DNA of 17,867 bases, taken from IMG/VR virus record IMGVR_UViG_3300044294_000233, one strand, 5' to 3'. Positions 1,457-17,867 of this stretch are shown here, one piece after another. The first letter of the stretch is position 1. Every line of letters starts with the position of its first letter. The stretch comes from a virus. Its lineage: Duplodnaviria > Heunggongvirae > Uroviricota > Caudoviricetes. The notes under the pieces were generated by a model. That model saw only the letters and a program-made list of their open reading frames with translations. It made no database searches and was not told the origin of the DNA. Both the position numbers and the translations under genes were made by a program.

Positions 1457-1490
1457 TATATACCTCGGAGGCACAATGGAAACCAAGAAA
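1457..1490 (+). promoter_or_regulatory. Shared 5' module copy 1: TATATAC, 12 nt including GGAGG, then ATGGAAACCAAGAAA
   Basis: A -10-like TATATA sits 13 nt upstream of the ATG. The 15-nt start of the coding sequence is identical to copy 2 at 4460-4474. Confidence 0.35.
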
Positions 1491-3137
1491 AACCTAGCAG
1501 TGACGCAGACACAGCAGAACAGACGCCCGTATGGTCCGTCTCGCCCGCCAACCCCTACCCCTTCAGAGAGCGTGATCCGCCGTGACGGTGAGATCCGTTT
1601 CTTCATGGACGAGGAGTCAAACACCCCCTTCATCCAAAACGTTCAGGTTCCGACCGAGAACCCGGACCCGCCGTTTTCCGTTCAGAACTACAAGGGTTAT
1701 TCCCCCGATCCGAACTCACCACAGGCGCTCGCGGCCAACTGCATGGCTACGCTCTGCTCGGCCCAAAGGATGTTGAAGAAGTACCTCGGCACGCTCCCGA
1801 AGTGGGCGGCGGTCAAAGTTCTTCGCGTTTACCCGAACGCCGGGAACCAGTTGAACGCCTTCTACAATCGCGAGTCGTTGCAGTTCTTCACGGGCCGGAA
1901 CCCTGTGAACGGGCAGGTGGTCCACACCTGTTTGTCGAACGACGTGGTCACCCACGAATTCTTTCACTCGGTACTTGACTCTTTGAAGCCCGTGCTGTTC
2001 AATACTCCATTCATTGAACAGGGTGCGTTTCACGAAGCGTTCGCCGACTGCGGCTCGATCCTGCATGCGATGTCGATTGACCCGGTTTTGACCTATACTG
2101 CACAGCAGATGGACGCGGCCCAAAGCAGTACCATTGCGTCGTCCGTAGCACCGGATCTGGGCTATGCGATCAACGGGGTGATCGGCGGGCTGCGTGACGC
2201 TTCGGTTCCGTACTACTACATCGATCCGGCCACACTGCCGAGATCTGCGCCGAAGAACCAGTTGTCCAGCGAGGTCCACAGTTTCAGCCGCGTGTTCAGC
2301 AGTGCGTTTTACGCTGCGATCATGGCCGTTTACGCCAAAGTGAAGGCACCGGGCGGTATCGGCACACGCGAAGCACTGATCATCGCACGCGACGAAATGG
2401 CTACGGTTTTGTTCCGTGCGGTACAAAACGCCCCGCTGACTCCGAGGTACATGGCTTCAATTGCGAGTACCATGTTGACAGAACTCGCTACCGGGCCTTA
2501 CGCAACTGAAGTTGCGAGCGTTTTTGCGACGTGGGGGTTGACCACGGTTCGTGCGGCCTCGACCGAAAGCGTCGAGGTTTTGCCGACCGACAAGGCTGTG
2601 AAGATCGGCGATCAGGATTTCTTGATTCGCGAAAAAAGCACTCAGATGGTACTGGCGGATACAATGATTGTCGGTCAGTCTGACAATCCGCTGTACTTCT
2701 GTAAGGTTGATGTCCCGCACGAGCAACTTTTGGTCGCTCAGGGCTTCGGCATGGCGGGGTTCGTAGACGGCGCAGAAGACGAGGAAATTCTCGATGAAGT
2801 TAAACTTGGTCTTGACTATATTTGGGAGTCGGACCTAGTAACCCTTCACGGGGAGCCGGTCAAGGACCACCACGTTTTCAAGGTTGATGAATCAGGCTCG
2901 CTGCTGAGGACCAGCTATAATTCCGACGACGGCTACTTCAACAACGCCACCTTGCCCGGTGCGCCAGAGTTTGGTAAGCCGTGGAAACCAGAAAACAATT
3001 CGGGGTGTTGCTCCGGTTGTAAGAAGAAAGTAGACCCTCCAGTTCGTCCACCGAAACTGGGGTGCTACGTCAACGAACGAGTGTGCGGCTCTCGTACTGT
3101 GCGAAGCTGCCAAGTCGTCCGTCAAAAGGTGTGTTAA
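1476..3137 (+). CDS. M4 thermolysin-family-like zinc metallopeptidase with Pro-rich N-terminus and Cys-rich C-terminal tail, 553 aa
   Basis: RBS GGAGG 4 nt before the ATG. Motifs NAFYNRESLQFFTG, VVTHEFFHSV (HExxH) and EQGAFHEAFADCGS (third-ligand Glu, ExxxD), with EVHSF downstream, parallel thermolysin NAFWNG / VVAHELTH / NEAISD / GGVHIN. No signal peptide visible. C-terminal tail is CCSGCKKK...C...C...C...C. Confidence 0.65.
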   Translation: METKKNLAVTQTQQNRRPYGPSRPPTPTPSESVIRRDGEIRFFMDEESNTPFIQNVQVPTENPDPPFSVQNYKGYSPDPNSPQALAANCMATLCSAQRMLKKYLGTLPKWAAVKVLRVYPNAGNQLNAFYNRESLQFFTGRNPVNGQVVHTCLSNDVVTHEFFHSVLDSLKPVLFNTPFIEQGAFHEAFADCGSILHAMSIDPVLTYTAQQMDAAQSSTIASSVAPDLGYAINGVIGGLRDASVPYYYIDPATLPRSAPKNQLSSEVHSFSRVFSSAFYAAIMAVYAKVKAPGGIGTREALIIARDEMATVLFRAVQNAPLTPRYMASIASTMLTELATGPYATEVASVFATWGLTTVRAASTESVEVLPTDKAVKIGDQDFLIREKSTQMVLADTMIVGQSDNPLYFCKVDVPHEQLLVAQGFGMAGFVDGAEDEEILDEVKLGLDYIWESDLVTLHGEPVKDHHVFKVDESGSLLRTSYNSDDGYFNNATLPGAPEFGKPWKPENNSGCCSGCKKKVDPPVRPPKLGCYVNERVCGSRTVRSCQVVRQKVC

Positions 3138-3157
3138 CCAACCCAGAGAGGGCTATC

Positions 3158-3496
3158 ATGGCAGCTTTCCCAGAAGACGATTACAAGAACCGGAACGCGA
3201 TGTCGTCCGGCGTTCCCGGCGGATTCGGCGGGGGCGTCGATGACGATGATGACTTCGACGGCGACCTAGACGACGATGACGACGACTGGGACGACGACGA
3301 TGATCTCGATGACGATGACGATGACGATGACGACTTCGATGACGAAGACGACGATGACGACTGGGATGATGACGACGACTTCGATGACGAAGACGATGAC
3401 GACCTAGACGACGATGACGACTGGGATGATGACGATGACGATGACGACGACGACGACTTCGATGACGATGACGACGACGATGACGTGAACTTCTGA
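3158..3496 (+). CDS. Extreme poly-aspartate acidic protein (about 80% Asp, aromatic/Leu residue every 6-10 residues), 112 aa
   Basis: ATG 3158 is in frame with track ORF 3062..3496 and is preceded by GAGAGGG 5 nt upstream. Sequence is MAAFPEDDYKNRNAMSSGVPGGFGGGV followed by about 85 aa of D with spaced F/W/L. It lies 20 nt after the peptidase stop on the same strand, and the next gene starts 8 nt after its own stop. Confidence 0.5.
   Translation: MAAFPEDDYKNRNAMSSGVPGGFGGGVDDDDDFDGDLDDDDDDWDDDDDLDDDDDDDDDFDDEDDDDDWDDDDDFDDEDDDDLDDDDDWDDDDDDDDDDDFDDDDDDDDVNF
3230..3490. repeat. Low-complexity GAY-codon (GAC/GAT) tract encoding poly-Asp
   Basis: Near-continuous gacgatgacgac... with interspersed tgg/ttc/cta codons. 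Slippage-prone. Confidence 0.8.
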
Positions 3497-3504
3497 GAGG
3501 CGCA

Positions 3505-4137
3505 ATGATCGCGGCTTTGGAGTTCTACATTCGCAGTACAGATCTTCGTAACAACCTTCCGGTCCCTTGCTCTTTCTGCCTGGAAAGCGAGCGTGGCGAC
3601 CGGAAGGTTGTTACTTTGAACGACGCTTATCGCCACCCCGATCAGATCGCGGTCAGGCAATGGAATCTCACCGAGTGCGAAGACAATCAATCGCTCCCAA
3701 CTATTCAGGAACGGATCATTCCACGCGGCGAGGTTTTTATCAGTGATGCGGTGATCATTCCCAACCACCGGCTTCTCAATTTGGTCAACGGTATCGGCAT
3801 ACCGAGCGGCCTCAATTTCCGAAACAAGCCCATGCCGGCCGATCAGTACACTCGGTTCTACGACAAGCTTCTGTCGATGGAATCTCAACTCTTCATCAAA
3901 GAGACGTGGGTCTGGCGAGAGTTCATCAGGGTTTATTTGCCTTTGATGTACACTCTGATTTACAGCGAGCGGGACGAGTTCGACCGGCTCAGAGAAATCA
4001 TGTCGATGATCCCGACCAACCAGCCGGAATTGTGGCATAAGTGGTTGAGGTGGAAGAAGTACATGCTCGATATGCCGGGCGTTCCGGGCGAAATCCTCTT
4101 CTACAAAGAATACGGGTCCGTCTTCCGCTTCGTGTGA
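3505..4137 (+). CDS. Hypothetical Trp-rich protein, 210 aa
   Basis: RBS GAGAGG 5 nt upstream of the ATG. GC3-biased codon usage like other plus-strand genes. The overlapping minus-strand ORF 3181..4152 looks like an antisense artefact. Confidence 0.55.
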   Translation: MIAALEFYIRSTDLRNNLPVPCSFCLESERGDRKVVTLNDAYRHPDQIAVRQWNLTECEDNQSLPTIQERIIPRGEVFISDAVIIPNHRLLNLVNGIGIPSGLNFRNKPMPADQYTRFYDKLLSMESQLFIKETWVWREFIRVYLPLMYTLIYSERDEFDRLREIMSMIPTNQPELWHKWLRWKKYMLDMPGVPGEILFYKEYGSVFRFV

Positions 4138-4138
4138 C

Positions 4139-4408
4139 TCACGGGTTGACACCCAGTTCTTTGGCCCTATACATGTTCCGTTTTATTAGGTCGCGGTCGT
4201 CGTAGCTCGGTTGTGTGATCTCTCGCGGCGGCTTTTTGCGTTTCTTCTCTTTGCCGAACTGTTCTTCTTTGCCGGGTGGTCTGGCACCTTTGGTGTTGCC
4301 GGCAATGGGTGCGTTCGGTCCCAACATGATTTGGACCGGAGGCGCGGGTGCGGTTCCCCACGAATCGCCCGCCGTCTCTCTCATTTTGACGTACTCGGCG
4401 AAGGTCAT
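4139..4408 (-). CDS. Small basic Gly/Pro/Lys-rich protein, 89 aa (start chosen at internal ATG with RBS)
   Basis: Internal Met54 of track ORF 4139..4567 is preceded by CAGGAGAAACC (GGAG 6 nt upstream). The longer ORF would run into the start of divergent gene 4460. KEKKRKKPPRE basic patch. Confidence 0.45.
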   Translation of the reverse strand: MTFAEYVKMRETAGDSWGTAPAPPVQIMLGPNAPIAGNTKGARPPGKEEQFGKEKKRKKPPREITQPSYDDRDLIKRNMYRAKELGVNP

Positions 4409-6260: not shown

Positions 6261-7293
6261 GGCAATTGATTTCGGTCGATTCAAACACTGGGTGCAGGAC
6301 CGTTTCCCCGACGCCATTGTCAAGGGGAAAGAGATCCGCATCAACTCCATTTTCGAGTCCGACCACAACTACCACCTCTGGTGCAGTCCGTCTGGCGGTA
6401 AAAAGAAACGCGCGAACGGCGTGTTCCACTGCTTCAAGACGGACAACAAAGGGTCGCTCGTCAAGCTCGTCATGTTGGTTGACAAGATCCCCTACGACGA
6501 AGCCTCGGCCATTTTGAAGGGGGAAGCCAACCTCGGCGAACTCGAACGTCAGGTCGAAGAACTGATGGAAGCGGCCGACCGGCCGTTCATCGAGAACAAA
6601 CCCAAAGTTCGCATCTCCCTGCCGGACGAGTGCTACGCCATCGACGGGTTGCGCGGCTGGTGGGGCGACAAGGCCCGTGAGTACCTCGCCGAACGCAAGA
6701 TCCCGCACGACGGGCTTTACATCTGCACCGGCGGCAAGTACAAGGCACGGATCATCCTACCGTATTACGACCGGGATGGCGATCTCTGTTATTTCAACGG
6801 TCGTCACATCGGCAAATCCAAGTTGAAGTATCTCGGCCCGGAGAAAGAGATCGGCGTCGGCAAGGAAGACGTGGTCTTCATGCCGGGAGGCGTTTGGCCC
6901 GCTCTTGGCTCGACCGTTCACCTCTGCGAAGGCGAGTTCAACAGCAAGAGCCTGTCGCTGTGCGGTTTCAACGGGGCGGCGGCGGGCGGCAAAAACCTGA
7001 GCGAGAAGCAGGCCGTTCTGCTCAAGGACTACAAGCTTGTCATCTGTCTGGACCGCGACAAGGCGGGCGAAAAGGGTTCGATGGCAATGGCTCAGAAGAT
7101 CATGAGCATCAGTCTGCGGTTCGGCAAAGACAAGTTGAGACTGGTTCAACCGCCGGAAGGGTACAACGACTGGAACGACATGTTGAAGAAATTCGGCACG
7201 AAGATTCTCTATGAGTATGTCCTTCGCGCCGAAACCACACTCGACAGTGAGTCGCCGTTCGGCGCGGCTGCTTACTCAGCTAGGTTGAAATGA
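6259..7293 (+). CDS. DnaG-type DNA primase (N-terminal Zn-binding region plus TOPRIM domain), 344 aa
   Basis: HNYHLWCSPSGG...HCFKTD Cys/His zinc-ribbon-like region. TOPRIM signatures VHLCEGEFNSKSL (catalytic Glu) and LVICLDRDKAGEKG (DxD). No helicase domain. Confidence 0.75.
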   Translation: MAIDFGRFKHWVQDRFPDAIVKGKEIRINSIFESDHNYHLWCSPSGGKKKRANGVFHCFKTDNKGSLVKLVMLVDKIPYDEASAILKGEANLGELERQVEELMEAADRPFIENKPKVRISLPDECYAIDGLRGWWGDKAREYLAERKIPHDGLYICTGGKYKARIILPYYDRDGDLCYFNGRHIGKSKLKYLGPEKEIGVGKEDVVFMPGGVWPALGSTVHLCEGEFNSKSLSLCGFNGAAAGGKNLSEKQAVLLKDYKLVICLDRDKAGEKGSMAMAQKIMSISLRFGKDKLRLVQPPEGYNDWNDMLKKFGTKILYEYVLRAETTLDSESPFGAAAYSARLK

Positions 7294-10733: not shown

Positions 10734-11744
10734 TTACTTTCGGGTTGACGCCTCGGCAGCGAGCAGACACCCACGAGCAACACTGTACAAGGTGTCCTGC
10801 GGACGGATCACTTCGCTCACCTTGATCGGCAGCTTGGCGTCGTCCAGAACAGTCTTGAACATTTCCACGAAACCGGGCGGCGAACTGGTCCCACCGGAAA
10901 CAACGATGTCGAACGGGTCGTCCGTCCTTACGACTTTGCTGTTCTTGTTCAGGCCGTTTTTGATTTCGGATACGCAGTGTTCGATCATCAGCCGGTACTG
11001 GCTGATGATCGCCCGTTCGATGAGGTCACCGGGAGCTTTCGAGAGATCGATCTTCATCTTCTGTTTGTTGATGAAGGTCGGCGACTCGGCAGTGGCTCGC
11101 GCCGCCTGCTTGTCGATCCAGTCTCCGCTGTTGACGATTGCGAAAGAGAAGACGGGGTTGCCGAACATGGCCATACACAGGTTGACCATACCGGCCCCGA
11201 AGCTGATCCCGATTCCCGTGTACGCCTTCTTCGACAGTTCGGCGTAAACGAGGGCGAGGGCTTCGTTAATCGGGTGCGGATCGACTCGCATTCCGTCCTT
11301 GTTCCTGAAGGCTTTGAAGATGCCTTCGAGCGTCAGGCGGTGGAAGTTCGCGTCCGTTTCGACGTTGATTGCGTTGGCCGGGACGCAGAAGTAGAGAGGC
11401 TCCTTGTCCTCCTTCACCGTCTCGATCAGCGAGTGGATCATGATGCTCAAGATCTGGTAGGCTTCCTTTTCCTTCGGGTTCACGCACCCGTCCGACATCG
11501 GCCGCTTCAACTCCATCGAGTTGATCGCGTAGGCCATCTTGACCGCCGACTCGCCGAGGGCGTAAGCCAACTTGTCCCTCTTGATCAGCGGGACACCAGC
11601 GTTATTCATCATGTTGTAGACGAAGTCGTTTTCGAGAGGAATCTCGATAAATGCGTTGACTTCGCGCTTGTGAACGAAGTTTCCCTTTTCGTCACGCTTG
11701 GAGCATACGAGGTTGTATGTGCCAACGTCAAATCCGATTGCCAT
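10734..11744 (-). CDS. Actin-fold ATPase (ParM/MreB/FtsA-like), 336 aa
   Basis: Phosphate-1 MAIGFDVGTYNLV. Phosphate-2 GIGISFGAGMVNL. Adenosine motif DIVVSGGTSSPPGF. C-terminal YSVARGCLLAA, like MreB ...CVARGTG. Start taken at Met21, which is preceded by AAAGGGTGA; the track start at 11804 has no RBS. Confidence 0.7.
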   Translation of the reverse strand: MAIGFDVGTYNLVCSKRDEKGNFVHKREVNAFIEIPLENDFVYNMMNNAGVPLIKRDKLAYALGESAVKMAYAINSMELKRPMSDGCVNPKEKEAYQILSIMIHSLIETVKEDKEPLYFCVPANAINVETDANFHRLTLEGIFKAFRNKDGMRVDPHPINEALALVYAELSKKAYTGIGISFGAGMVNLCMAMFGNPVFSFAIVNSGDWIDKQAARATAESPTFINKQKMKIDLSKAPGDLIERAIISQYRLMIEHCVSEIKNGLNKNSKVVRTDDPFDIVVSGGTSSPPGFVEMFKTVLDDAKLPIKVSEVIRPQDTLYSVARGCLLAAEASTRK

Positions 11745-11778
11745 GTCTTTCACCCTTTCGTTTTGAGGTCTTTCGATC

Positions 11779-12033
11779 TCACTTGTCGTACTTTCCGAAT
11801 TCAATCGTTTCGGTGGATGGTGTGAACTCAGGTATCATCCACTCTGCTGCCTCTGCGGGCTTCGGTGCCATCTGCTTTTGCTCAGGCACCTGATCCGCAC
11901 TCGCTACCGACGCCACAGACATTCCCACCACACCGCCACCAAGATTCAGATTCAGGTCGATTACCAACCTGACCGTTATCTCTCCGTCGCGGGTCGTGAT
12001 GTTCACGTTCTGTGGTTTGATAACTTGAGGCAT
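11779..12033 (-). CDS. Small hypothetical protein, 84 aa, immediately upstream of actin-like gene
   Basis: ORF with weak RBS-like AGGTAA. Plausible codon usage. Position is analogous to an adaptor or regulator gene of a segregation module, but no motif was recognised. Confidence 0.4.
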   Translation of the reverse strand: MPQVIKPQNVNITTRDGEITVRLVIDLNLNLGGGVVGMSVASVASADQVPEQKQMAPKPAEAAEWMIPEFTPSTETIEFGKYDK

Positions 12034-14404: not shown

Positions 14405-14624
14405 GTCGGACTCCAATCTGATCAAAGAAACGATGGACGATTTCTTCAGTAATTTTGGCGCGGCCGATGACCCGCATGCGAAATTACTCATTCAAATGGT
14501 GCTGGCCGAGGCTCTGCGTCCTGGCAACAAAAACAACAATCGATTTTGGGTGAAGTGCGATGCGAATGTTGAGAAATGTCCCGTCGTGCCGCATACAATA
14601 GTTCATGGGAAAACCGTGGTCTGA
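14403..14624 (+). CDS. Small hypothetical ORF, 73 aa, at the left edge of the AT-rich homing-endonuclease island
   Basis: AT-shifted codon usage like the HE gene. Its end overlaps the HE start by 20 nt. It is in the same frame (coordinate mod 3 = 0) as ORF 15462..15821. Weak call. Confidence 0.3.
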   Translation: MSDSNLIKETMDDFFSNFGAADDPHAKLLIQMVLAEALRPGNKNNNRFWVKCDANVEKCPVVPHTIVHGKTVV

Positions 14625-15465
14625 ATCCGAGTTGGAATTACTTCGTCAGCTTGGGCCGTCAAAACATTCGACTGAATTAATTGATTGCTTGCCGGGCCAT
14701 ACTGCACCTGCCATTGCCAAGATGAGGAACAGAATCGGCGTAGTTATTACGGCTGAGTGTCGTTCTAGGTCTGGCGAAAAGGCCGCTCGGTTTCGCAATG
14801 GCTGCAAACTCGACCAAAACCTTTCCTTGTCTGATTTTGACGACTGCGTTTTTCAGGTACTGATCGGCAGTATGTTGGGCGATGGTTGTGTGACCAAAAG
14901 CGACGACTGCAAAAACTACTTCTTCTGCGAAGGACATGGTTCCAAACAGACTGATTACCTCGAATGGAAAATGAACATCCTGTCGCCTTTCATGTCGCGA
15001 TGGAATTCAAACAAAAAGACGCACATTTCTACGGCCCGTCATCCGATATTTACTTCATTGAGAGATCGATTCTACAAGGCCAGGAAAAACTGCGACAAAA
15101 GCATAATTCCAGTAGACTTGATTTCCAAGCTGAATTTTTTCGGGTTGATGATTTGGTACATGGACGATGGCTACCTGGGGACTACCAGAACCGGCCGTCT
15201 TAGCAATGGACTCAAAAAATCGCCACAACCTTCAATATCAGCCAAAGGATGGGATCGTATCGACTTGGAGAACGCGGTGTCCATTTTGAATCAAAACTTA
15301 GATCTATCAATGTACATCAAGTATTACAAACACAGAAATGGTCAGAACAAGTTAGTTATGCTTGGCAAAAGCAGAGACTTCTTGCTGTCTAAATGGAAGA
15401 CAATTTCACAAGAACGTAAACTGCCGGCTTGTATGTCGTACAAGCTAGAATGCGAGGTTTGATGA
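14405..15465 (+). mobile_element. AT-rich island carrying the homing endonuclease gene (free-standing HEG or intron-like insertion)
   Basis: Local drop in GC and codon bias against a high-GC background, coinciding with the HE ORF and the small upstream ORF. Confidence 0.4.
14605..15462 (+). CDS. LAGLIDADG homing endonuclease (two-motif, monomeric type) with N-terminal Myb/HTH-like extension, 285 aa
   Basis: Two LAGLIDADG motifs: VLIGSMLGDGCV and FFGLMIWYMDDGYL. N-terminal WSESELELLRQL resembles a Myb/SANT-like helix. Codons are markedly more A/T-ending than surrounding genes. A stop lies immediately upstream in frame. Confidence 0.8.
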   Translation: MGKPWSESELELLRQLGPSKHSTELIDCLPGHTAPAIAKMRNRIGVVITAECRSRSGEKAARFRNGCKLDQNLSLSDFDDCVFQVLIGSMLGDGCVTKSDDCKNYFFCEGHGSKQTDYLEWKMNILSPFMSRWNSNKKTHISTARHPIFTSLRDRFYKARKNCDKSIIPVDLISKLNFFGLMIWYMDDGYLGTTRTGRLSNGLKKSPQPSISAKGWDRIDLENAVSILNQNLDLSMYIKYYKHRNGQNKLVMLGKSRDFLLSKWKTISQERKLPACMSYKLECEV

Positions 15466-16938: not shown

Positions 16939-17867
16939 TTACCTCCTACACGGTACGAATCTGACGCACTGGCCCTCGCCCTCGTCGTCGCTGAGTAGTT
17001 TGCTCATGTCGAGTTCGACCTTGTGCGTGATCGGGTCGCCACGGTACACCATTTCCACTTCCGGCTTCTCTGGCAGGACCAAGTGGATCGCGGTCGGGAC
17101 GTTGCTGACCAAGTGGATCGCGGTCGGCGCACCCACCAGTTGGATCGATTCAGGTACGCCCACCAACTCCATCATCAGCTTCCTCGGCACGTCCTCGGCC
17201 ATTCGCAATTCGATGAACTCAGGTACGTCCTTGTTCTTCAAGAAAATGAATTCCGGTACGTTAGTCGCCCTCAGTTCAAAGAACTCAGGCAGGTTGTGTT
17301 TCAAAGAGATCTCGTTCGGAATCGGCGTCTCGGCCTTGATTTCGATGTAGGTCGGCAACGTGGTTCCGCGAACCTCGATGAACATTGGCAGATCGTGTAC
17401 CAGTCTCATGTCCGGTATTTCCGGCACCACGACCTTGATCTCGGACGGGATGCCGATGTCTTGCGCGGTTACCAGCGGAGGGTCCGACTGGAAGCTGTCA
17501 ACGAAGCTCTCCTCGAACCCGCCCGACATCATCGCCATCGGCGTCACCGACGTACTTCCGCAACTGACCGTGACCACGCAACTCAGAACCGGCACCGGGT
17601 TCCAGTTCACGTCGATTACCGTGGGGACGTTCGCGTTGTATGCGAAGATTGAAGTCGGGATGTTGATGTTGTACCCCAAGATCGAAGTCGGGATATTGAC
17701 GTTGTATGCCAAGATCGAAGTCGGGATATTGACGTTGTACGCCAAGATCGAAGTCGGGATGTCAACGTTGTACGCCAAGATCGAGGTCGGGAAAGACCCG
17801 TAGACGTTGATCGAGGTCGGGAAAGATCCGTAGACGTTAATCGTTGTCGGGATGTTCGCGTAAACAT
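16939..17867 (-). CDS. Tandem-repeat protein (11-aa repeats (A/G)YN(V/I)NIPTSIL, then degenerate 11-12 aa xPEFIELRxxx repeats), 5' end beyond window; probable fiber or beta-solenoid structural protein
   Basis: The frame stays open to the window edge. The track Met at 17778 is internal. At least eight 11-aa repeats are visible (VYGSFPTSIN, AYNVDIPTSIL, AYNVNIPTSIL, ...). Its stop is 1 nt before the start of the next gene. Confidence 0.6.
   Translation of the reverse strand, partial: VYANIPTTINVYGSFPTSINVYGSFPTSILAYNVDIPTSILAYNVNIPTSILAYNVNIPTSILGYNINIPTSIFAYNANVPTVIDVNWNPVPVLSCVVTVSCGSTSVTPMAMMSGGFEESFVDSFQSDPPLVTAQDIGIPSEIKVVVPEIPDMRLVHDLPMFIEVRGTTLPTYIEIKAETPIPNEISLKHNLPEFFELRATNVPEFIFLKNKDVPEFIELRMAEDVPRKLMMELVGVPESIQLVGAPTAIHLVSNVPTAIHLVLPEKPEVEMVYRGDPITHKVELDMSKLLSDDEGEGQCVRFVPCRR
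17635..17867. repeat. 33-bp (and 30-bp) tandem DNA repeats, at least 7 units, coding for the 11-aa protein repeats
   Basis: Units such as gttgtatgccaagatcgaagtcgggatattgac recur head-to-tail with a few substitutions. They continue to the window edge. Confidence 0.8.

Follow-up and report, generated by a model that had tools for sequence, protein, structure and literature searches.

One open reading frame in the window, the whole stretch of 17,867 nucleotides analyzed here, encodes a protein made of little besides aspartate. We asked whether this frame is a gene, how the few other residues within it are placed, and what such a protein could do for a phage.

The poly-Asp gene and its orthologues

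The features that bear on the first question are given by position, strand, and description.

3146 to 3152, plus strand: Shine-Dalgarno-like GAGAGGG, 5 nt upstream of the poly-Asp ATG
3158 to 3496, plus strand: poly-Asp protein gene, ATG at 3158 to TGA at 3496; 112 aa, net charge -72, 66% D+E
3158 to 3238, plus strand: nonrepetitive leader of 27 aa (MAAFPEDDYKNRNAMSSGVPGGFGGGV)
3239 to 3484, plus strand: acidic tract of 82 residues (69 Asp, 2 Glu, 1 Gly, no basic residue) with F33, L37, W44, L50, F60, W69, F75, L83, W89, and F101
3485 to 3493, plus strand: C-terminal V-N-F
3505 to 4137, plus strand: downstream co-oriented ORF of 210 aa, starting 8 nt after the poly-Asp stop
3181 to 4152, minus strand: poly-Ser shadow ORF of 323 aa, not a gene; reverse complement of the GAY tract

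The 112-aa translation reads MAAFPEDDYKNRNAMSSGVPGGFGGGV-D5-F-DGD-L-D6-W-D5-L-D9-F-DDEDDDDD-W-D5-F-DDEDDDD-L-D5-W-D11-F-D8-VNF.

The Asp frame on the plus strand is the true reading frame of the tract. We accept it because orthologues conserve the GAGAGG ribosome-binding site (found before the orthologous ATG in L023-L028 as well; L numbers denote loci), the N terminus, and the C-terminal Phe, because the next gene begins directly past the stop, and because the minus-strand ORF is a shadow. We considered that poly-Ser ORF as a gene and rejected it, since it lies over the downstream plus-strand gene, which is conserved in L001, L025, L030, L031, L013, and L064. At L030, the gene caller picked the shadow strand. 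Between 1476 and 4137, no promoter- or terminator-like site was found on the plus strand except inside the protease gene that lies upstream, and terminator-like hairpins are located at 4210 to 4289, past the 210-aa ORF. From this layout, the 210-aa ORF probably shares a transcript with the poly-Asp gene. A scan of viral contigs with the 210-aa protein gave no match.

A direct homology search with the poly-Asp protein scored 8,000 candidates, and none passed; the HMMER composition correction removed them all. Because this correction erases profile matches, orthologues were located by synteny and by a D5-W-D5 DNA motif. The protein matched no family in Pfam (E ≤ 0.01), PHROG, or NCBIfam and no PDB sequence at E ≤ 10. 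The window as a whole had no Megablast match among isolated phages, and we found no earlier description in the literature on polyaspartate in phages and on phage mimics of the SSB tail.

The poly-Asp ORF is a real gene that is conserved in very large phages. It was recovered, open and in frame and with its start context, leader, and terminus kept, at more than 20 divergent loci in phages; these derive from independent samples and assemblers. Its synteny persists down to 29% identity of the neighboring gene, and the family spans many huge-phage contigs of 0.2 to 0.6 Mb from varied metagenome samples. The leaders are clade specific, with a loose motif in the close clade (MA-x-LLE[ND][DE]..K.[HR]AP..AG), and the dense acidic tract begins after 21 to 37 residues in all 13 complete orthologues tabulated. 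The terminal Phe is kept in the close clade, where 5 of 5 complete orthologues have it (DVNF in the window and L001, DENF in L025, DVDF in L030, and DPGF in L031); in distant orthologues, the last residue is D, E, S, N, or Y.

AlphaFold2, run on this single low-complexity sequence, returned no secondary structure (pLDDT 55, pTM 0.14), and the poly-Asp protein is predicted to be intrinsically disordered. Its acidity is not a proteome-wide trait, since the other window proteins have ordinary pI values (4.6 to 10). A halophile-type acidic proteome was rejected on the same values.

Interrupting residues and turnover of the tract

The first-pass annotation of this DNA had read the hydrophobic residues of the tract as the series F, L, W, L, F, W, F, L, W, F. 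This order is exact in the translation, and the V-N-F end adds a twelfth hydrophobic position beyond that list. The separation it gave, 5 to 11 Asp, needs minor correction: the first gap is 3 residues (DGD, with a Gly), and 2 Glu lie within the tract. We found that the gaps in the window tract are more even than random placement would give (coefficient of variation 0.37, P = 0.002, 20,000 permutations).

The tract is 84% D/E, and K, R, and H are absent. F, L, and W account for 11 of its 14 nonacidic residues, compared with an F/L/W/Y share of 19.7% in the other genes of the window, D and E set aside (binomial P = 3.5e-6). Across orthologues, F/L/W/Y make up 157 of 223 interrupting residues (70%) against the same background (P = 4e-60); Trp and Leu occur 43 times each, whereas I (5), V (7), M, and A are rare. 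We rejected neutral decay of a pure GAY repeat as their source: the one-step neighbors of GAY codons (N, H, Y, G, A, and V) contribute 60 of the 223, whereas F, L, and W contribute 141. F, L, and W are two to three nucleotide changes from GAY codons and therefore do not represent mutational decay. Judged by composition, selection acts on the interrupting residues as a class (F/L/W/Y). Thus, the earlier view that the tract is not random low complexity is borne out, both by this bias and by the retention of the ORF in synteny.

The first-pass annotation had also let its case turn on whether aromatic spacing is conserved among orthologues. It is not: the density of hydrophobic residues varies widely, from 1 per 6 to 8 residues (window clade, L002, and L005) to 1 per 16 to 18 (L011, L052, L054, and L058), and L006 contains an uninterrupted D/E run of 65 residues. 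The closest relative with a recovered poly-Asp ORF, in which the protease is 87% identical, carries the series F, L, W, L, L, W, L, L instead. Because the spacing drifts and the order differs even in the closest relative, a fixed repeating unit with "phosphate-like spacing" is unlikely. The periodicity of the window clade comes largely from tandem duplication of short units. We also rejected a coiled-coil or heptad reading. L001 has a Phe every 6 to 7 residues, but neither the window, with gaps of 4 to 12, nor other orthologues show this, and no helix is predicted.

The longest exact repeat within the tract has two copies.

3346 to 3375, plus strand: copy 1 (30 bp, direct repeat)
3406 to 3435, plus strand: copy 2, 60 bp downstream of copy 1; possible substrate for an in-frame 20-codon deletion or duplication

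At the codon level, the tract is a degenerate GAY repeat (GAC 45, GAT 24) in which the longest run of identical codons is 5, and Tandem Repeats Finder places arrays at 3238 to 3485 with periods of 6, 12, 27, and 45 and 68 to 69% matches. Calling the tract slippage prone, as had been done, is only partly apt. The length polymorphism predicted along with it does occur in related lineages. An in-frame indel of 36 bp, with an 18-bp direct repeat at its borders, separates L011 from L016 and is a case comparable to that of the 30-bp repeat, and alleles of 89 (L055), 136 (L062), 139 (L059), and 155 aa (L058) lie between flanks that are 98.6 to 99.99% identical. The window allele, however, is monomorphic so far, with the same 112-aa protein on 9 contigs. 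Every indel observed in the tract is in frame. Assemblies frequently break within the poly-Asp tract.

Linkage to a thermolysin-like protease gene

Our strongest lead, overlooked in the first-pass annotation, is the linkage of the poly-Asp gene to the protease gene upstream.

1476 to 3137, plus strand: thermolysin-like (M4/M36-fold) zinc metalloprotease, 553 aa, with HEFFH at residues 160 to 164, E187, D191, and H268; no N-terminal propeptide
2964 to 3134, plus strand: C-terminal tail of the protease, 57 aa, basic and Cys-rich (7 Cys, 12 K/R), ending in QKVC

In the AlphaFold2 model of the protease (pLDDT 83.9), the catalytic fold starts at about residue 35. The top Foldseek matches are aureolysin, thermolysin, protealysin, and M36 fungalysins (E of 1e-6 to 2e-4, target-normalized TM-score of 0.49 to 0.63). 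H160, E161, H164, E187, D191, and H268 are invariant in 46 protease sequences and include the zinc ligands expected of HExxH plus a downstream Glu, and the enzyme is therefore predicted to be probably active. The window protease has no match in Pfam, where it stays below the gathering score of the M4/M36 profiles, and only some distant homologues carry PF02128. Because the window protein lacks a Pfam match, we regard the protease as a divergent, unnamed branch of thermolysin-like enzymes. Residues 485 to 525 have a pLDDT below 50 and are followed by a predicted beta-hairpin at 530 to 547. The catalytic core is acidic (pI 4.9), and only the two ends of the protein are basic; the tail carries about +7, against -72 for the poly-Asp protein. 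The neighborhood in the window holds a primase and a PD-(D/E)XK nuclease and is not a head-morphogenesis cluster.

The two genes lie side by side at more than 20 divergent phage loci. Viewed from the protease side, a same-strand acidic ORF comes next in 11 of the 13 loci with enough downstream DNA. In the reverse test, a protease lies upstream on the same strand at 12 of 16 testable stand-alone hyperacidic ORFs found by the D5-W-D5 DNA motif. The gaps between the two genes are 20 to 43 nt in the window clade and L002. A strongly acidic ORF stands behind every protease that has the conserved basic Cys-rich tail; where this tail is missing, the acidic ORF is absent (L012 and L013) or weaker (L015, L037, and L052). 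The linkage is not absolute, as L012 and L013 show from one side and the acidic ORFs of L048, L066, L069, and L072, which have no protease, show from the other. In one subclade, opposite-strand genes lie between the protease and the acidic ORF, so the pair is not always cotranscribed. A Rosetta-stone test found a fused D/E-rich segment in 0 of 120 protease homologues, and the bacterial homologues (Streptomyces and Acidobacteria) have no acidic neighbor.

Candidate roles of the poly-Asp protein

By analogy with known acidic proteins, we tentatively favor the reading that the poly-Asp protein is a polyanionic, multivalent decoy that resembles nucleic acid or an SSB tail and carries hydrophobic anchors. 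It would be a disordered polyanion with a clade-specific leader, ~85 acidic residues with nothing basic among them, sparse F/L/W/Y anchors, and, in this clade, a C-terminal Phe. The carboxylate chain would occupy the basic nucleic-acid-binding surface of a partner, and aromatic and Leu side chains would plug hydrophobic pockets beside that surface. Candidate partners may be host DNA- or ssDNA-binding proteins, client proteins of the SSB tail, or the basic Cys-rich tail of the adjacent protease. We infer this binding mode and target; the acidic tails of SSB, T7 gp2.5, and gp32 work in this manner, as do the acidic domains of histone chaperones. Slippage, or else unequal recombination, at its short degenerate repeats drives the evolution of the tract, so that unit number and spacing drift while charge and anchor class are retained. 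The strain-level variation in length, as read from the alleles, fits a generic polyanion whose exact length is uncritical.

SSB-type tails are disordered Asp-rich chains with a terminal aromatic that dock on basic and hydrophobic sites of their partners and compete with ssDNA; for T7 gp2.5, the docking site is a basic patch on the polymerase (PMC12339929). Titles of references cited in that paper describe the C-terminal Phe of gp2.5 as essential. Like these tails (E. coli SSB, ending in DDDIPF, T7 gp2.5, and T4 gp32), the poly-Asp protein is an Asp-rich disordered chain ending in an aromatic residue. Unlike them, it is a free-standing 112-aa ORF without an OB fold, 5 to 10 times longer, and multivalent; it ends in VNF, ENF, VDF, or PGF, with N, D, or G and not Pro before the Phe, and its distant orthologues lack the terminal Phe. 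The gp32-like phage SSBs recovered in the motif scans have acidic tail regions of the same Asp-run and W/F composition (one ORF of L044 ends in DDDDDVPF, and L071 and L076 have DDDDDVPF inside the tail region); those with such tails are separate proteins of ~350 to 420 aa.

The disordered domain of SPO1 Gp44 (57% D/E) is a proposed ssDNA mimic that binds RNA polymerase (PMC8208478). The poly-Asp tract has the features of the Gp44 type: D/E exceed 50%, basic residues are absent, disorder is predicted, and repeats occur within it. It is, like the Gp44 middle domain (residues 56 to 122), phage encoded and hyperacidic. However, it reaches 84% D/E, and Gp44 has no near-pure Asp tract. Gp44 is a 27-kDa protein whose N-terminal domain is folded and binds DNA and which has a C-terminal domain as well, whereas a 27-aa leader and no folded domain are found here. 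Nor does Gp44 have a linked protease or detectable homology to the poly-Asp protein.

Aromatic anchors in an acidic chain are also found in eukaryotes. APLF uses a disordered acidic domain with two aromatic anchors to cover the surface with which H2A-H2B binds DNA, and the anchors of related chaperones are 9 to 23 residues apart (PMC6101569). BKRF4 of Epstein-Barr virus is likewise a disordered acidic chain in which spaced aromatics anchor to a DNA-binding surface and exclude DNA (PMC9477414). The poly-Asp protein shares with BKRF4 and the histone chaperones (APLF, YL1, and Nap1) a disordered acidic chain with spaced aromatics; they differ from it in being eukaryotic, in targeting histones, and in having 2 to 3 anchors in a mixed D/E/S context without a repeat array.

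The surface carboxylates of Ocr imitate the phosphate backbone and block DNA-binding defense enzymes. PMC3439906 and PMC7261183 describe how Ocr, by mimicking DNA, blocks BREX and the restriction enzymes of type I. T7 Ocr and ArdA are, like the poly-Asp protein, small and very acidic phage proteins, but they are folded dimers with a fixed carboxylate geometry, whereas the poly-Asp protein is predicted to be unstructured and is variable in length. No Pfam, PHROG, NCBIfam, or PDB match places it with Ocr or ArdA, and its predicted model has no fold for a B-DNA-like carboxylate geometry. It counts against the decoy that most of the DNA mimics known are folded proteins of much lower acidity. The anchors are not essential to the core function of the family, because L006 and the L055 group have almost none inside the tract. 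A free-standing anti-host decoy also leaves the two-way protease linkage unexplained, and this linkage favors a protease-related role.

One such role, which we consider possible but doubtful, is that of a cognate regulator of the adjacent protease, either an inhibitor or "immunity" protein or a foldase/chaperone acting in trans. In M4/M36 enzymes, the propeptide is the usual inhibitor and foldase; the window protease has no N-terminal propeptide and would therefore be active in the cytoplasm once made. Regulation could work through a hydrophobic residue in the S1' pocket together with an Asp carboxylate at the zinc, through sequestration of Ca2+ or Zn2+, or through contact with the basic Cys-rich tail. 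The two-way linkage, the short gaps in the window clade and L002, the invariant catalytic residues of a probably active enzyme, the start of the modeled catalytic fold near residue 35, and the constant pairing of the conserved tail with a strongly acidic ORF all argue for this role. Several of our observations argue against it: the catalytic core is itself acidic and the tail holds a small fraction of the opposing charge, either gene occurs alone, opposite-strand genes separate the pair in one subclade, no fusion was seen among the 120 homologues, and the bacterial homologues lack an acidic neighbor. We rejected simple electrostatic pairing with the whole protease, because only its ends are basic.

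Emfourin, a folded protein, offers a precedent for the regulator. It inhibits protealysin, an intracellular M4 protease with which it shares an operon, and it binds the active-site region 1:1 (PMC9505478). Both systems have a small ORF adjoining the gene of an intracellular thermolysin-like protease, and protealysin is among the top structural matches of the neighbor described here. However, emfourin is not a poly-Asp chain and has no sequence similarity to the protein, whose composition is unlike that of a folded inhibitor; no homology to emfourin or to other inhibitor families was found in Pfam or NCBIfam.

We consider improbable the alternative that the poly-Asp protein is a precursor or substrate, which the protease would cut before each F/L/W to release hydrophobic-capped oligo-Asp peptides (F/L/W + D5-D11) serving as cation chelators or packaged counter-ions. 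Thermolysin-like enzymes (family M4) favor bulky hydrophobic residues at P1', usually Leu, Phe, Ile, or Val. The analogy for the released peptides is the T4 prohead protease, which cuts acidic internal peptides from core proteins. The same gene linkage is consistent with this scheme. The only frequent nonacidic residues are of the type accepted at P1', and the regular spacing of the window clade would yield peptides of similar size. Against it, Trp is as frequent as Leu and Ile and Val are scarce, a mismatch with the M4 preference; L006 and the L055 group have almost no internal cleavable residues; and the primase and nuclease neighborhood is not that of head morphogenesis.

The two protease-related roles can be drawn together. 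The poly-Asp protein and the propeptide-less protease would then form an undescribed two-component unit, in which the former is either a disordered polyanionic regulator (through an Asp-zinc "switch" with hydrophobics in S1', or through cation withholding) or a polyprotein cut before each F/L/W, its repeat number tuned by slippage between strains. We regard such a unit as conceivable, though on balance unlikely.

A further proposal concerns only the pattern of the tract and would go with whatever function the protein has. In it, the leader and the hydrophobic punctuation would counter intrinsic ribosome destabilization, an account that we judge quite improbable. Acidic runs destabilize the bacterial ribosome, and a filled exit tunnel and bulky residues near the peptidyl-transferase center, the two elements proposed here, counteract this effect (10.1101/2021.02.02.429294). 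In agreement with it, 21 to 37 residues precede the dense tract in the 13 complete orthologues tabulated, D/E runs in the window clade are at most 15 residues long, and the interrupting residues are the bulkiest amino acids. However, orthologues tolerate uninterrupted D/E runs of 19, 22, 32 to ~40, and 65 residues. Moreover, acidic runs within a protein reportedly have little effect when the exit tunnel is already occupied (10.1101/2021.02.02.429294), and therefore the leader alone may suffice.

A divalent-cation or polyamine sponge, which would be a calsequestrin-type Ca2+/Mg2+ buffer without a specific protein partner and which takes up the "metal-binding repeat" of the first-pass annotation, seems very improbable to us. 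It agrees with composition alone (69 Asp in 82 residues), with the tolerated variation in tract length, and with the dependence of thermolysin-like enzymes on Ca2+; it leaves the aromatic and Leu selection, the conserved terminal Phe, and the clade-specific leaders unexplained. Near-pure GAY-encoded Asp runs whose length varies between alleles are known from the asporin D-repeat and aspein, which, unlike the phage protein, are secreted animal matrix or mineral-binding proteins with no aromatic punctuation and an unrelated context.

Finally, that there is no functional protein at all, but a GAY repeat that expanded within a spurious or decaying small ORF or arose as an artifact of assembly, is scarcely credible: broken assemblies, one opposite-strand gene call, and the loss of all matches to composition correction point that way, but at the sequence level this reading is already contradicted by conservation, with an open ORF that keeps its start context, leader, and terminus at more than 20 independent loci, indels that are all in frame, and interrupting residues far from neutral in composition.

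The family is invisible to standard annotation because gene callers and assemblers mishandle the locus (wrong-strand calls and contig breaks) and profile searches erase it. Hyperacidic phage proteins are a proven source of anti-defense and host-takeover factors, but those described to date are folded and much less extreme. The analysis uncovered an unannotated, widespread family of near-pure poly-Asp proteins with hydrophobic anchors, tied to an unnamed branch of thermolysin-like enzymes. Its natural allelic series of 89 to 155 aa offers a test of charge and valency, and the family is a test case for how bacteria translate 60 to 110 consecutive acidic codons despite ribosome destabilization. 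The poly-Asp family may also represent a new type of protease regulator, or a new type of decoy that targets proteins binding DNA or SSB.

The poly-Asp gene and its product

The poly-Asp ORF is a real gene that is read in the Asp frame. It has three parts.

3158-3496, plus strand: poly-Asp ORF, ATG to TGA, 112 codons
Leader: 27 residues, nonrepetitive
Acidic tract: 82 residues (69 Asp, 2 Glu, 1 Gly, and the anchors F33, L37, W44, L50, F60, W69, F75, L83, W89, and F101)
C terminus: V-N-F

A GAGAGGG precedes the ATG by 5 nt, and its GAGAGG is kept in relatives. The ATG is 20 nt after the stop of the upstream gene, and 8 nt separate the poly-Asp stop from the start of the next gene. We found no promoter-like sites between the three co-oriented ORFs and no terminator-like sites between them outside the protease coding sequence; terminator-like hairpins lie downstream of the three, at 4210-4289. 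A 323-aa minus-strand poly-Ser ORF was rejected as a gene: it is the reverse complement of the tract, and its overlap with the conserved downstream gene marks it as a shadow. At one related locus (L030, 3127-3525), the gene caller had annotated the minus-strand shadow ORF and not the poly-Asp ORF.

The first-pass annotation reported hydrophobic residues in the order F, L, W, L, F, W, F, L, W, F, which matches the translation exactly, and a spacing of 5 to 11 Asp, which holds roughly, except that one gap consists of DGD and two contain a Glu. As a whole, the observation was confirmed. The protein has a net charge of -72, with no basic residues in the tract. The gaps between anchors are more even than under random placement (P = 0.002), and F, L, and W account for 11 of the 14 nonacidic tract residues, compared with an F/L/W/Y share of 19.7% among the nonacidic residues of other window genes (P = 3.5e-6). 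Thus, the pattern is not due to chance. AlphaFold2 predicted no secondary structure (pLDDT 55, pTM 0.14), and searches of Pfam, PHROGs, NCBIfam, and PDB returned no match. Nor does the protein belong to the Ocr/ArdA, Gp44, or emfourin families.

Conservation and repeat turnover in the family

We compared the window with loci on other phage and viral contigs, most of them metagenomic (handles L001 to L078). Complete orthologues have net charges of -41 to -85 (-30 in the weak L015 copy), and 21 to 37 nonacidic residues precede the dense tract. Across 18 orthologues, the interrupting residues were F (55), L (43), W (43), and Y (16), together 157 of 223 (70%; P = 4e-60 against the 19.7% background, a value inflated by shared ancestry). 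Ile (5) and Val (7) were rare, and Met and Ala were absent. Turning GAY into F, L, or W codons takes two to three nucleotide changes, and single-step neighbors are a minority of the interruptions; therefore, the interruptions are selected and do not reflect decay. The poly-Asp protein is a conserved polyanion, predicted to be disordered, in which bulky hydrophobic residues are under selection. The earlier view that the tract is not random low complexity was correct, and anchor class, acidity, and synteny are conserved across the family.

In the window clade, delimited by a protease identity of 51% or more, the proteins are 112 to 120 aa long, the leaders have a loose motif in common, and Phe is the last residue of each of the five complete proteins (DVNF, DVNF, DENF, DVDF, and DPGF). 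Anchor density is 1 per 6 to 8 residues in this clade, L002, and L005 and 1 per 12 to 18 in L007, L011, L052, L054, and L058, and L006 has an uninterrupted D/E run of 65 residues. Regularity of the spacing reaches significance in the window, L001, and L002 alone and is marginal in L011. The relative with an 87% identical protease has the anchor order F, L, W, L, L, W, L, L, and L001 contains runs, for example FDDEDDD repeated three times and FDDDDDD four times. Neither spacing nor anchor identity is conserved, and the window-clade periodicity is therefore for the most part a side effect of short units being duplicated in tandem. The proposal of a repeating binding unit is supported in part: the tract is nonrandom, conserved, and length-polymorphic, but the spacing is not a conserved unit.

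The tract DNA is a degenerate GAY repeat and no clean microsatellite. Its Asp codons are 45 GAC and 24 GAT (152:55 in other genes), with same-codon runs of at most five. Tandem Repeats Finder gave periods of 6, 12, 27, and 45 with 68 to 69% matches, and the longest exact repeat is 30 bp, with copies at 3346 and 3406. Loci L011 and L016 are 98% identical across 2059 bp, and 36 of their 38 gap positions form a single in-frame 36-bp indel within the tract, flanked by an 18-bp direct repeat, GATGAAGATGGTGATGAT. In four samples, L055, L062, L059, and L058 carry acidic ORFs of 89, 136, 139, and 155 aa within flanks that are 98.6 to 99.99% identical over 4 to 11 kb. Short-read assemblies often break in the tract, so that repeat collapse could account for some of this apparent variation; among Logan and SPAdes contigs, many stop within the tract (L022, L023, L024, and L026 to L029). 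The family evolves by repeat turnover. The predicted length polymorphism was found in the family but not in the window's allele, for which exact copies of the 112-aa protein on nine contigs showed no variation.

Genomic context and linkage to a protease

Phage-like genes of the window encode a Toprim primase, a PD-(D/E)XK nuclease, and a GP4 gp80-like fiber protein. No close relative was found among isolated phages. The source is a huge phage, because the same proteins recur on metagenomic contigs of up to 476 to 586 kb. Other features of the window are as follows.

10734-11804, minus strand: 356-aa actin-fold protein, Pfam PF25216 "Volactin" (E 5.7e-69)
14605-15462, plus strand: LAGLIDADG homing endonuclease, PF03161 (E 4e-21)
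16939-17778, minus strand: 279-aa acidic protein, pI 4.6
17634-17852: two tandem-repeat arrays, with units of 33 nt (4.8 copies, 88% matches) and of 30 nt

The Volactin family is named for the Haloferax volcanii cell-shape actin (PMC10869688), and the huge-phage member may be a phage cytoskeletal element. The homing endonuclease, in the region of lowest GC (0.43 to 0.49 versus ~0.55 elsewhere), is probably a mobile insertion. The 33-nt array encodes repeated N-terminal "AYNVNIPTSIL" units of the 279-aa protein, whereas most of the 30-nt array falls upstream of the ORF for this protein.

The 553-aa protein encoded directly upstream of the poly-Asp ORF (1476-3137, plus strand) had no Pfam match of its own. 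Its AlphaFold2 model (pLDDT 83.9) most closely matched aureolysin, thermolysin, protealysin, and M36 fungalysins. Across 46 homologues, H160, E161, H164, E187, D191, and H268 never vary, and PF02128 is present in some distant homologues. Despite the missing Pfam match, we conclude that this gene encodes a thermolysin-like zinc protease. The N-terminal propeptide that such enzymes usually have is missing, and the protein ends in the following tail.

2964-3134, plus strand: protease tail, 57 aa, basic, 7 Cys, 12 K/R, PEFGKPWKPENNSGCCSGCKKK...KLGCYVNERVCGSRTVRSCQVVRQKVC

The tail is highly conserved, though relatives are only 51 to 87% identical overall, and its motif PE[FY].KPWK..NN.GC ... SRKVC-COOH is seen again in very distant homologues. 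The tail might bind zinc or nucleic acid or serve as a release peptide. On a 389-kb contig (L014, 6305-6532), the catalytic part of the protease stops at 6326 and the tail is read in another frame, reflecting either a split gene or a frameshift, the latter programmed or due to a sequencing error.

A same-strand acidic ORF follows the protease gene in L001 (protease 66% identical), in the 595-kb uncultured phage LR756511 (L002; 29% identical), and in L004 (partial), L005, L006, L007, L011, L014, L015, L016, L025, L030, and L031; contig ends cut it short in L023, L024, and L026 to L029. No such ORF is present in L012 or L013, where the protease is without the conserved tail, or next to bacterial homologues. 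In the reverse direction, we scanned IMG/VR for DNA encoding D5-W-D5, ignoring the protease. Small stand-alone hyperacidic ORFs occurred in 18 of the 43 loci found; two were cut by contig ends, and the protease lay upstream on the same strand in 12 of the 16 testable cases and was absent in 4. Thus, synteny from one side and the motif scan from the other link the pair both ways and show a genetic association of the poly-Asp gene with a thermolysin-like protease that has a basic, Cys-rich tail. Cotranscription is not universal, because opposite-strand genes intervene in one subclade.

In that subclade, two conserved flanking genes (L054, 5555-5995 and 6534-7265; L058, 6513-6941 and 7617-8324; L014, 6539-6964 and 7242-8159) may be extra module components. 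One, on the minus strand between protease and acidic ORF, encodes a lipoprotein-like protein of ~141 to 146 aa; the other, just past the acidic ORF, encodes 235 to 305 aa with an N-terminal hydrophobic signal-like segment. Viral contigs L048, L066, L069, and L072 carry stand-alone hyperacidic, W-rich ORFs of 62 to 109 aa, with no thermolysin-like protease found in the loci fetched; they either form a family of their own or represent the poly-Asp protein in a different setting.

Possible functions of the poly-Asp protein

The best explanation, held tentatively and by analogy, is that the poly-Asp protein imitates nucleic acid or an SSB tail and serves as a multivalent decoy. Its acidic chain would cover a partner's basic DNA- or ssDNA-binding surface, and the aromatic or Leu side chains would serve as anchors. 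Analogues are the disordered acidic domain of SPO1 Gp44 (PMC8208478) and the acidic domain of APLF, with its aromatic anchors (PMC6101569); titles of references cited by PMC12339929 describe the C-terminal Phe of the T7 gp2.5 acidic tail as essential. The D-run plus W/F pattern also occurs in acidic tail regions of gp32-like phage SSBs recovered by the motif scans. The sequence DDDDDVPF ends one ORF (L044, truncated) and is internal in two SSBs (L071/L076).

These SSB-like proteins (~350 to 420 aa; L035 1405-2604, L041, L043, L049/L056, L050, L051/L073, L061, L071/L076, and L075) were called gp32-like from a zinc-finger motif in L035. Their C-terminal regions contain very long, W/F-punctuated poly-Asp with poly-Lys segments on both sides, so that polyanion and polycation blocks alternate. 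Two further recurrent small viral proteins with a D5-6-W-D5-7 motif are unrelated to the protease module (L039, L045, L060, L068, L077 and L046, L047, L053, L065, L078). One has 195 aa, is His/Tyr/Cys-rich, and has an N-terminal hydrophobic signal-like segment and C-terminal WDDDDDDWDDDDDDD; the other (90 to 92 aa) has central DDDDDDWDDDDD followed by Gly/Arg/Met-rich repeats.

The main rival to the decoy reading, only somewhat less probable, is that the protein regulates or inhibits its cognate protease, which has no propeptide. Linkage in both directions and the protealysin-emfourin precedent (PMC9505478) argue for it, but the protease's catalytic core is itself acidic (pI 4.9), some loci have only one of the pair, and no fusion of protease and acidic segment was found. 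Cleavage of a precursor before F/L/W into oligo-Asp peptides is improbable. About as improbable is a role of anchors and leader as aids against the ribosome destabilization caused by acidic nascent chains (10.1101/2021.02.02.429294), with orthologues whose uninterrupted runs span 22 to 65 residues counting against it. A cation sponge is very improbable, and an artifactual ORF is the least credible of all.

The poly-Asp protein represents an unannotated, widespread huge-phage protein family, which we tentatively class with the known hyperacidic phage decoy proteins and whose linkage to a protease was previously unnoted.
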